From assembly GCF_003334255.1 (NCBI RefSeq), contig NZ_QOWU01000198.1: a DNA stretch of 700 nt; one strand, written 5' to 3'. The translations under genes and the position numbers were made by a program. This stretch comes from Escherichia coli (GTDB lineage: Bacteria > Pseudomonadota > Gammaproteobacteria > Enterobacterales > Enterobacteriaceae). Every line of letters starts with the position of its first letter. The first letter of the stretch is position 1. Below, piece after piece: positions 15 to 695 of this stretch. Below the pieces are notes generated by a model. That model had not been told where the DNA came from and made no database searches. It saw only the letters and a list, made by a program, of their open reading frames with translations.

Positions 15-695
15 TTACCCCTGCCGCCCGATAACCACGACCTTTCCGCCCCCGCCTTCATCACGGGTACTGATGTCCTGGGATATACGGCGGGAGCCAA
101 CCAGCATTTCCCCGTAAGGCACCGGCATCGGGTTACCCTGGGCAATCATGTTGTCCAGTGACGAAAAGTACGTGTTCTGTCTGCCGTTATCCGTTGCGCG
201 GTAATCCGGTGTTTTTGCCTTCGGGGCCAGCATCTGGGCCACACCGCCCAGAATCATGCTGGCTCCAAGTGAAAACAGCATCGTGGTGGCAGAAAAACCA
301 CCGGCTGCCAGGGCTGAACCCCATAACGCCATCGAGGCACCGGCAGTGAGGAAAGAGCCCACGATGGCTGCCGCCCCCAGCACAATCTGCAGTCCACCCT
401 TTCCGGCCCCGGCCAGTCGCGGCACAATGTGGATGACCGTTCCCTCACCCAGCTGTTCGTGAAGACGGGCGTACACCGCCTCCGGTGCCGTGTCATCACC
501 GGCAATACGTATCTGGTACCAGCCTTCGTTCATCTGACGGCGAAAGCCCGGCATCTGCATCGACAGGGCGCGGATGGCTTCCGCTGCCGTGTTCACATAC
601 AGGCTGAGGCGGCGGCCAAATCGTTGTAAATCCCCGTGAAGGCAGATGCGTGCCAGTGGCGGTGACGCCAGACAGAATGCGTTCGTCGTTGCCAT
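15..695 (-). CDS. I: Lambdoid phage tail tip assembly protein I (lambda gpI family). ATG at 695..693, TAA stop at 17..15, 226 aa. Residues ~19-101 form the N-terminal soluble domain ending in GAGKGG, residues ~102-158 are a Gly/Ala-rich hydrophobic segment, and residues ~159-226 are the conserved C-terminal region.
   Basis: Seen in sequence: a single uninterrupted 681-nt frame on the minus strand covers nearly the whole window, with codon usage (CTG, GCC, CGC, GGC) consistent across it. From memory of the lambda gpI sequence, the translation shares extended motifs with it: GDLQRFGRR, NTAAEAIRALS, PGFRRQMNEGWYQ-RIAG, IHIVPR-AGA, QIVLGAAAI-GSF, FSLGASM-LGGVAQMLAPKA, QNTYFSSLDNM-AQGN and VVVIGR. 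The length (226 aa) is close to the 223 aa I recall for lambda gpI. No search was run. Confidence 0.9.
   Translation of the reverse strand: MATTNAFCLASPPLARICLHGDLQRFGRRLSLYVNTAAEAIRALSMQMPGFRRQMNEGWYQIRIAGDDTAPEAVYARLHEQLGEGTVIHIVPRLAGAGKGGLQIVLGAAAIVGSFLTAGASMALWGSALAAGGFSATTMLFSLGASMILGGVAQMLAPKAKTPDYRATDNGRQNTYFSSLDNMIAQGNPMPVPYGEMLVGSRRISQDISTRDEGGGGKVVVIGRQG

Follow-up and report, generated by a model that had tools for sequence, protein, structure and literature searches.

Assembly of the phage lambda tail requires gpK. The protein is absent from lambda virions, in which gpI is detected by mass spectrometry (PMC10721106). Three copies of gpI sit in the lumen of the lambda tail tip as a tripod or plug, resolved from residue ~101/135 to 223 (135-223 in PMC10721106), while the N-terminal domain is not resolved in the cryo-EM structures (PMC11101478). 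The binding partners of the gpI C-terminal region are gpJ and the gpH C-terminus (PMC10721106, PMC11101478), a gpI-gpHC complex has been described (PMC12617516), and the plug is tied to the hub domains of gpJ through beta-sheet augmentation (PMC10721106, PMC12617516). When the closed tip is compared with the open, LamB-bound one, the hub domains of the latter are turned outward and the plug domains have come apart; two helices of gpI, H1 and H2, are predicted to be transmembrane and to serve in outer membrane insertion (PMC11101478). A functional analogue is the plug domain of phage T5 pb3, which is likewise trimeric, occupies the same position in the lumen, and has a hydrophobic segment proposed to contact the outer membrane (PMC10721106). 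In T5, however, the plug is a domain within a single large hub protein, whereas gpI is a separate gene product.

The K and I genes of lambda-like tails are textbook knowledge and structurally solved; roughly 60% of complete E. coli genomes have them, in many cases as multiple copies. In lambda (NC_001416), K spans 14276-14875 and I spans 14773-15444, so that I starts 103 nt inside K; 60 nt separate I from J. A further element described in such a region is PasB, an 83-nt, Northern-validated sRNA of the EPEC strain E2348/69 whose stability is Hfq-dependent (Table S6, PMC8550237). It is located at NC_011601.1 1466343->1466261, between E2348C_1436 and E2348C_1437 (PMC8550237), and has published trans targets. 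For PasB we relied on Pearl Mizrahi et al. 2021 (PMC8550237) and on the preprint of Zhu, Shabalina & Storz 2026.

Genes K and I in the window

The window analysed here is a 700-bp stretch of DNA that makes up the entire contig QOWU01000198.1 of the E. coli draft assembly GCA_003334255.1, so that the ends of the window are the ends of the contig. Its G+C content is 59%, and the first 14 nt are the only ones outside coding frames. We conclude that the window almost certainly derives from the late (tail) operon of a lambda-like E. coli prophage, of which it contains the last 35 codons of K and the complete gene I (Table 1). None of the tests run contradicted the identification of the genes, and the K/I segment is of the ordinary lambdoid type, already known.

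Table 1. Features of the 700-bp window
Feature	Position	Strand	Remarks
Gene K, 3' end (last 35 codons)	593..700	-	TGA at 595..593; frame enters at 700, gene runs past the contig end
K/I out-of-frame dual-coding overlap	593..695	-	103 nt, same length in lambda
Gene I, tail tip assembly protein I (gpI homologue)	15..695	-	226-codon ORF; ATG at 695..693, TAA at 17..15
N-terminal Lambda_tail_I domain, aa 15-97	405..653	-	Pfam PF06805, model positions 3-83 of 83, E 3.6e-16
Gly/Ala-rich hydrophobic segment, aa 98-160	216..404	-	Counterpart of lambda helices H1/H2
C-terminal plug and beta-strand region, aa 161-226	18..215	-	Forms the trimeric plug of the tail-tip lumen in lambda
Spacer of 7 nt between predicted PasB 3' end and I stop	8..14		Identical in loci L001, L010 and L006
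T7 run, putative U-tract ending a convergent PasB-family sRNA	1..7	+	By position and identity to relatives

A reading of the same DNA made from its letters only (hereafter the sequence-only reading) had attributed positions 15-695 to one gene family, and we indeed found there exactly one minus-strand ORF with a full-length match to lambda gpI. The source record lists its product as RCQ31273.1, a 'tail assembly protein [Escherichia coli]' of 226 aa, and an exact search with this protein sequence led to QOWU01000198.1 and to no other contig. Against the PDB, residues 1-224 of this product aligned with residues 1-223 of the lambda 'Tail tip assembly protein I' (8iyk_I, E 1.3e-94); chain I of the lambda entries 8IYL, 8K35 and 8XCG was matched as well, and residues 137-223 (87 residues) matched the resolved gpI fragment 9e7m_Ia with an E-value of 9.6e-39. 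The PHROG tail families 4244 and 32 also recognised the protein (E 3e-87 and 6e-79, respectively), and the G+C content at codon positions 1, 2 and 3 of the I frame (0.64/0.51/0.67) gives a coding signal. A solved homologue at E 1e-94 settles the identity. The NCBIfam scan returned no model for either the I product or the K tail. Alternative frames inside I contain small ORFs of 32-83 aa; these lie within a strongly conserved coding frame, and nothing independent supports them.

The I product and lambda gpI are colinear (226 vs 223 aa) and share the same three-part layout, namely the Lambda_tail_I domain, the Gly/Ala-rich helices and a C-terminal plug with beta-strands. Their identity in a global alignment is 67% and is spread across all three parts. 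About one third of the residues differ, mostly within aa 1-14 and 60-80, and the window's protein is longer by 2 residues inserted in the hydrophobic segment and by 2 more at the C-terminus. The hydrophobic segment contains 14 Ala and 12 Gly among its 63 residues, and its Kyte-Doolittle means over 19 residues exceed 1.6 near aa 109-115 and 148. The motif TMLFSLGASMILGGVA aligns with lambda 137-GILFSLGASMVLGGVA-152, a segment singled out in the structural papers.

The second part of the earlier claim, an overlapping end of the usual upstream neighbour, was likewise confirmed. The K frame translates within the window as EKWQRRTHSVWRHRHWHASAFTGIYNDLAAASACM followed by the stop codon, and 27 of the 35 residues (77%) are identical to the C-terminus of lambda gpK. 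The assignment to K is made by homology, because an open frame of 35 codons is not significant in itself. The same peptide is matched by the minor tail protein family phrog_30 at profile positions 507-541 of 544 (E 1.3e-15), and the annotation of relatives over this part reads 'C40 family peptidase' or 'tail tip assembly protein K'. With respect to lambda gpK, a C40/NlpC-P60 peptidase, the stop codon has the same position relative to the I start, but the window holds the C-terminal tail alone, with the peptidase domain past the contig end. When compared with the PDB, the 35 residues gave chance matches to farnesyltransferase and nothing else. There appears to be no gpK structure, as would fit a protein that is absent from virions. 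Within the K/I overlap, 19 substitutions separate the window from lambda, 10 of which fall on position 3 of K codons, equivalent to position 1 of I codons.

The order K then I on one strand, as the sequence-only reading had it, follows from the two frames and from the phrog_30 and gpI matches; J, which it placed after I, lies outside the window. Likewise, its statement that the region is devoid of repeat arrays, insertions and defence-like content agrees with our scans. Neither direct nor tandem repeats were found in the window by the repeat and tandem-repeat scans, Rfam gave no match at E<=1, and none of the PADLOC defence-protein families matched at E<=0.01. The sole result of the repeat scan was an 18-nt imperfect inverted pair, 477 nt apart, which we took as chance. 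By contrast, the claim that everything in the window is explained by I and its neighbour holds in part: just 14 nt are non-coding, but the T-run at positions 1-7, which corresponds to the end of pasB in relatives, had been missed.

By analogy with the published lambda structures, the 226-aa I product would become part of the tail tip in trimeric form, in contact with gpJ and gpH; at 67% identity, we expect both properties to carry over from lambda. Binding of gpJ to its receptor would then swing the hub domains outward and disassemble the plug, after which the two Gly/Ala-rich hydrophobic helices might enter the outer membrane and provide a path for gpH and DNA. This last step is a hypothesis even in lambda. 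The sequence elements underlying the lambda steps are all conserved in the window's protein.

Relatives, gene start and contig origin

Matches to the window were found in 3315 of 5426 complete E. coli genomes, at a median of 2 and a maximum of 12 places per genome, and in 188 phage records, mostly of E. coli phages and Stx-converting phages. The best match in the complete genomes is 98.9% identical, and no 100% match exists among the 5426. We sampled the annotation of 40 matches, evenly spaced down the whole ranking: 39 overlie 'tail assembly protein | C40 family peptidase', and the weakest is a decayed remnant without I. This remnant, in E. coli ES9 (locus L012, 7415-8763), has kept K and lost I, and a gp53-like tail-fibre gene abuts K; its surroundings contain IS1/IS5 elements and pseudogenes, and it shows how far cryptic versions of the module erode.

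In each of the five relatives that we inspected in full, L-K-I-J-lom lie on a single strand, in prophage or phage DNA. The earlier description of the region as a conserved lambdoid tail module, and not a novel system, was therefore borne out in all tests. The closest relative, E. coli S1-CAM-02-A (locus L001, 98.9%), carries head genes of the HK97 type; its prophage, which has three IS21-family insertions and a frameshifted portal gene in or beside it, is probably defective. ATCC 25922 (locus L010, 98.6%) carries an apparently complete lambda-like head and tail module that adjoins potB. The phage record vB_EcoS-783R2 is 96.9% identical, and prophage PP6 of E2348/69 96.6%. Strain D1 (locus L011, also 96.6%) is represented by a record labelled as a plasmid that nonetheless contains potA/potB, and may be a mis-assigned piece of chromosome.

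The head modules of S1-CAM-02-A and ATCC 25922 (26000-38000 in the two loci) differ beside near-identical K-I-J blocks. In ATCC 25922, the head genes Nu1-A-W-B-C-D-E-FI are lambda-like, whereas the capsid and portal of S1-CAM-02-A are HK97-like. Different heads on near-identical K-I-J blocks are classic lambdoid mosaicism.

Since the window is the whole 700-bp contig, J, the integrase and the intactness of the prophage are beyond what the record can tell; judging from the relatives, J would follow I here too, and the prophage would be intact or cryptic, as the sequence-only reading proposed. The same lack of flanks leaves some room for K and I of this genome to lie in a domesticated or non-phage setting, for example as part of an F-type tailocin-like cluster or as an isolated remnant, and decayed remnants such as that of ES9, with I deleted, do occur. 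We consider such a setting most unlikely. Every relative inspected at 97-99% nucleotide identity has L-K-I-J-lom in phage or prophage DNA, all full-length matches in the sample of 40 have both K and I under the match, and the I ORF of the window is intact. The sequence-only reading had named a non-phage setting of I beforehand as contrary evidence, and neither a secretion-system context nor any other non-phage context of I was seen among the relatives inspected. A decayed prophage remnant, moreover, would still fall within the 'cryptic' option of that reading. The annotation of relatives raises another question, that of where I begins. RefSeq/PGAP in the complete genomes, as well as several phage records, give a 'tail assembly protein' gene of 582 nt (193 aa) starting at GTG (for example, L001 20015-20596, L009 1175-1756 and L010 20015-20596). 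The corresponding codon in the window is the internal GTG at 596..594, which would overlap the K stop by 4 nt (GTGA) and render the 103-nt overlap an artefact. Such GTGA-type coupling of start and stop codons is common in phage operons and counts in favour of this start. Nevertheless, we regard it as very unlikely to be the true one, because 19 residues of the PF06805 domain, which begins at aa 15 of the long form, would lie upstream of the GTG. Furthermore, the alignment with lambda gpI (223 aa) begins at residue 1, 22 of the first 33 residues being identical, and those with the more distant solved homologues 9l9p_A and 25vf_9 begin at query residues 19 and 13, respectively. The 226-aa length is also that of the source record and of most members of the 90% cluster, and in S1-CAM-02-A GGGAGAGG is found 11 nt upstream of the ATG, whereas no Shine-Dalgarno-like sequence precedes the GTG. 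The 226-aa form is thus better supported by the sequence comparisons, and the I gene called by PGAP is most probably 33 codons too short. The truncation is systematic; it removes part of a conserved N-terminal domain and hides the K/I overlap.

As for the length of the contig, several near-identical prophage copies most likely broke the short-read assembly around this segment; a collapsed repeat would explain so short a contig because the segment is repeated within genomes. It is possible that the T7 run, at which the contig exactly begins, was an assembly branch point, its length being variable in relatives (T7 vs T8 in L006). Eight differences separate the window from its best match. Three clustered ones, at 335, 339 and 350, match a lineage (L006/L008) that is otherwise 22 mismatches away and give SFLTAGAS instead of SFFTAGAT, and at positions 168 and 246 the window has a variant found in none of the four sequences compared. 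Ordinary lambdoid mosaicism and a collapsed consensus would each account for such a piecewise pattern. Four IMG/VR contigs with the exact variant at 321-360 were considered as the true flanks and rejected, since overall they are just 94.9-96.9% identical, below the best E. coli match; they show mosaicism. An assembler's consensus or chimera of at least two prophage copies would be compatible with the window being a K-I fragment of a prophage tail operon and would concern its exact sequence only. The very short contig forming a whole record, the multi-copy nature of the segment in most E. coli genomes, the missing exact match and the mixed variants all speak for it, and we see some chance that it is correct. 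However, we find it rather less probable than a genuine sequence, given that recombination among lambdoid prophages naturally yields the same piecewise pattern, that the ORF is intact with both changed residues in a tolerant Gly/Ala-rich stretch, and that the contig is indexed for 2 samples in the collection.

The T-run and the I-J spacer

The window begins with TTTTTTTATTCTTTTT. By homology, its T-run is predicted to be the U-tract of PasB: in relatives, the last 7 nt of PasB coincide with window positions 1-7. The window itself holds nothing of PasB beyond this U-tract, and the hairpin, the body and the promoter would lie past the contig end. The neighbour in this genome could equally be PasB proper or a diverged variant of the ATCC 25922 type, whose similarity to PasB is limited to the promoter and the final 25 nt. 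The occurrence of PasB beside I is known biology and no discovery.

The coordinates in E2348/69 (I end, 1466255; J start, 1466496) put PasB of prophage PP6 in the spacer between the two genes, where it is convergent with I and ends 6 nt past the I stop codon. The E2348/69 sequence maps to L001 19925-20007 (+), where 20001-20007 equals window 1-7, and to L009 1762-1844 (-). The published Northern probe, AATCCCGCAGTGATCGCGGAGCT (PMC8550237), is found directly after the I stop in L001. Identity to the E2348/69 sequence is 97.6-100% in four loci and 90% in two. Among relatives with 97-99% identity to the window, the 3' end of PasB lies on the opposite strand, 6-8 nt beyond the I stop codon, and the junction between PasB and the I 3' end is present in 1097 of the 5426 complete genomes.

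In four of the relatives inspected, a spacer of ~340 nt (19671-20014 in L001; 240 nt in E2348/69) separates I from J, compared with the 60 nt of lambda. It contains no convincing ORF. The strand opposite to the tail genes carries a near-consensus promoter, TTCACA-16-TATAAT, and a terminator-like hairpin (L001 19983-19999) followed by ATTTTTTTAT, which runs into window position 1. Promoter hexamers and terminator hairpin are invariant in five aligned loci (L001, L010, L009, L004 and L006), while the body of the sRNA varies. The Rfam scan of the L001 spacer gave sub-threshold chance matches only, and PasB is evidently not an Rfam family. We also considered AgvB/AsxR (Tree et al. 2014) as the spacer sRNA and rejected them, as they are located near PR'/moron sites and not in the tail operon.

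If the T-run is what its relatives suggest, it would be the end of a validated prophage sRNA gene and an example of how tight phage structural operons host small, oppositely transcribed genes. PasB is perfectly antisense to the I-J part of the late tail mRNA, because it lies wholly inside the region that this transcript crosses, and its terminator is directly adjacent to the stop codon of I. We therefore raise, as a speculation that we consider improbable, that the T-run marks the end of a conserved slot, occupied by PasB-family sRNAs and sometimes by sodC, and that PasB, in addition to its trans targets, could act in cis on the expression of J (tail fibre) or on mRNA processing. The evidence that bears on a possible cis effect is the conserved geometry, the promoter and the terminator.

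Accessory genes that run opposite to the tail operon seem to have a slot in the I-J spacer. One such gene is found in strain D1, where a sodC moron (Cu/Zn superoxide dismutase; L011 11294-11821, +) is inserted between J and I, with its coding strand opposite to that of the tail genes and upstream of a PasB-variant sequence. A second strong hairpin, of 14 bp with a T-tail, is found at L001 19773-19804.
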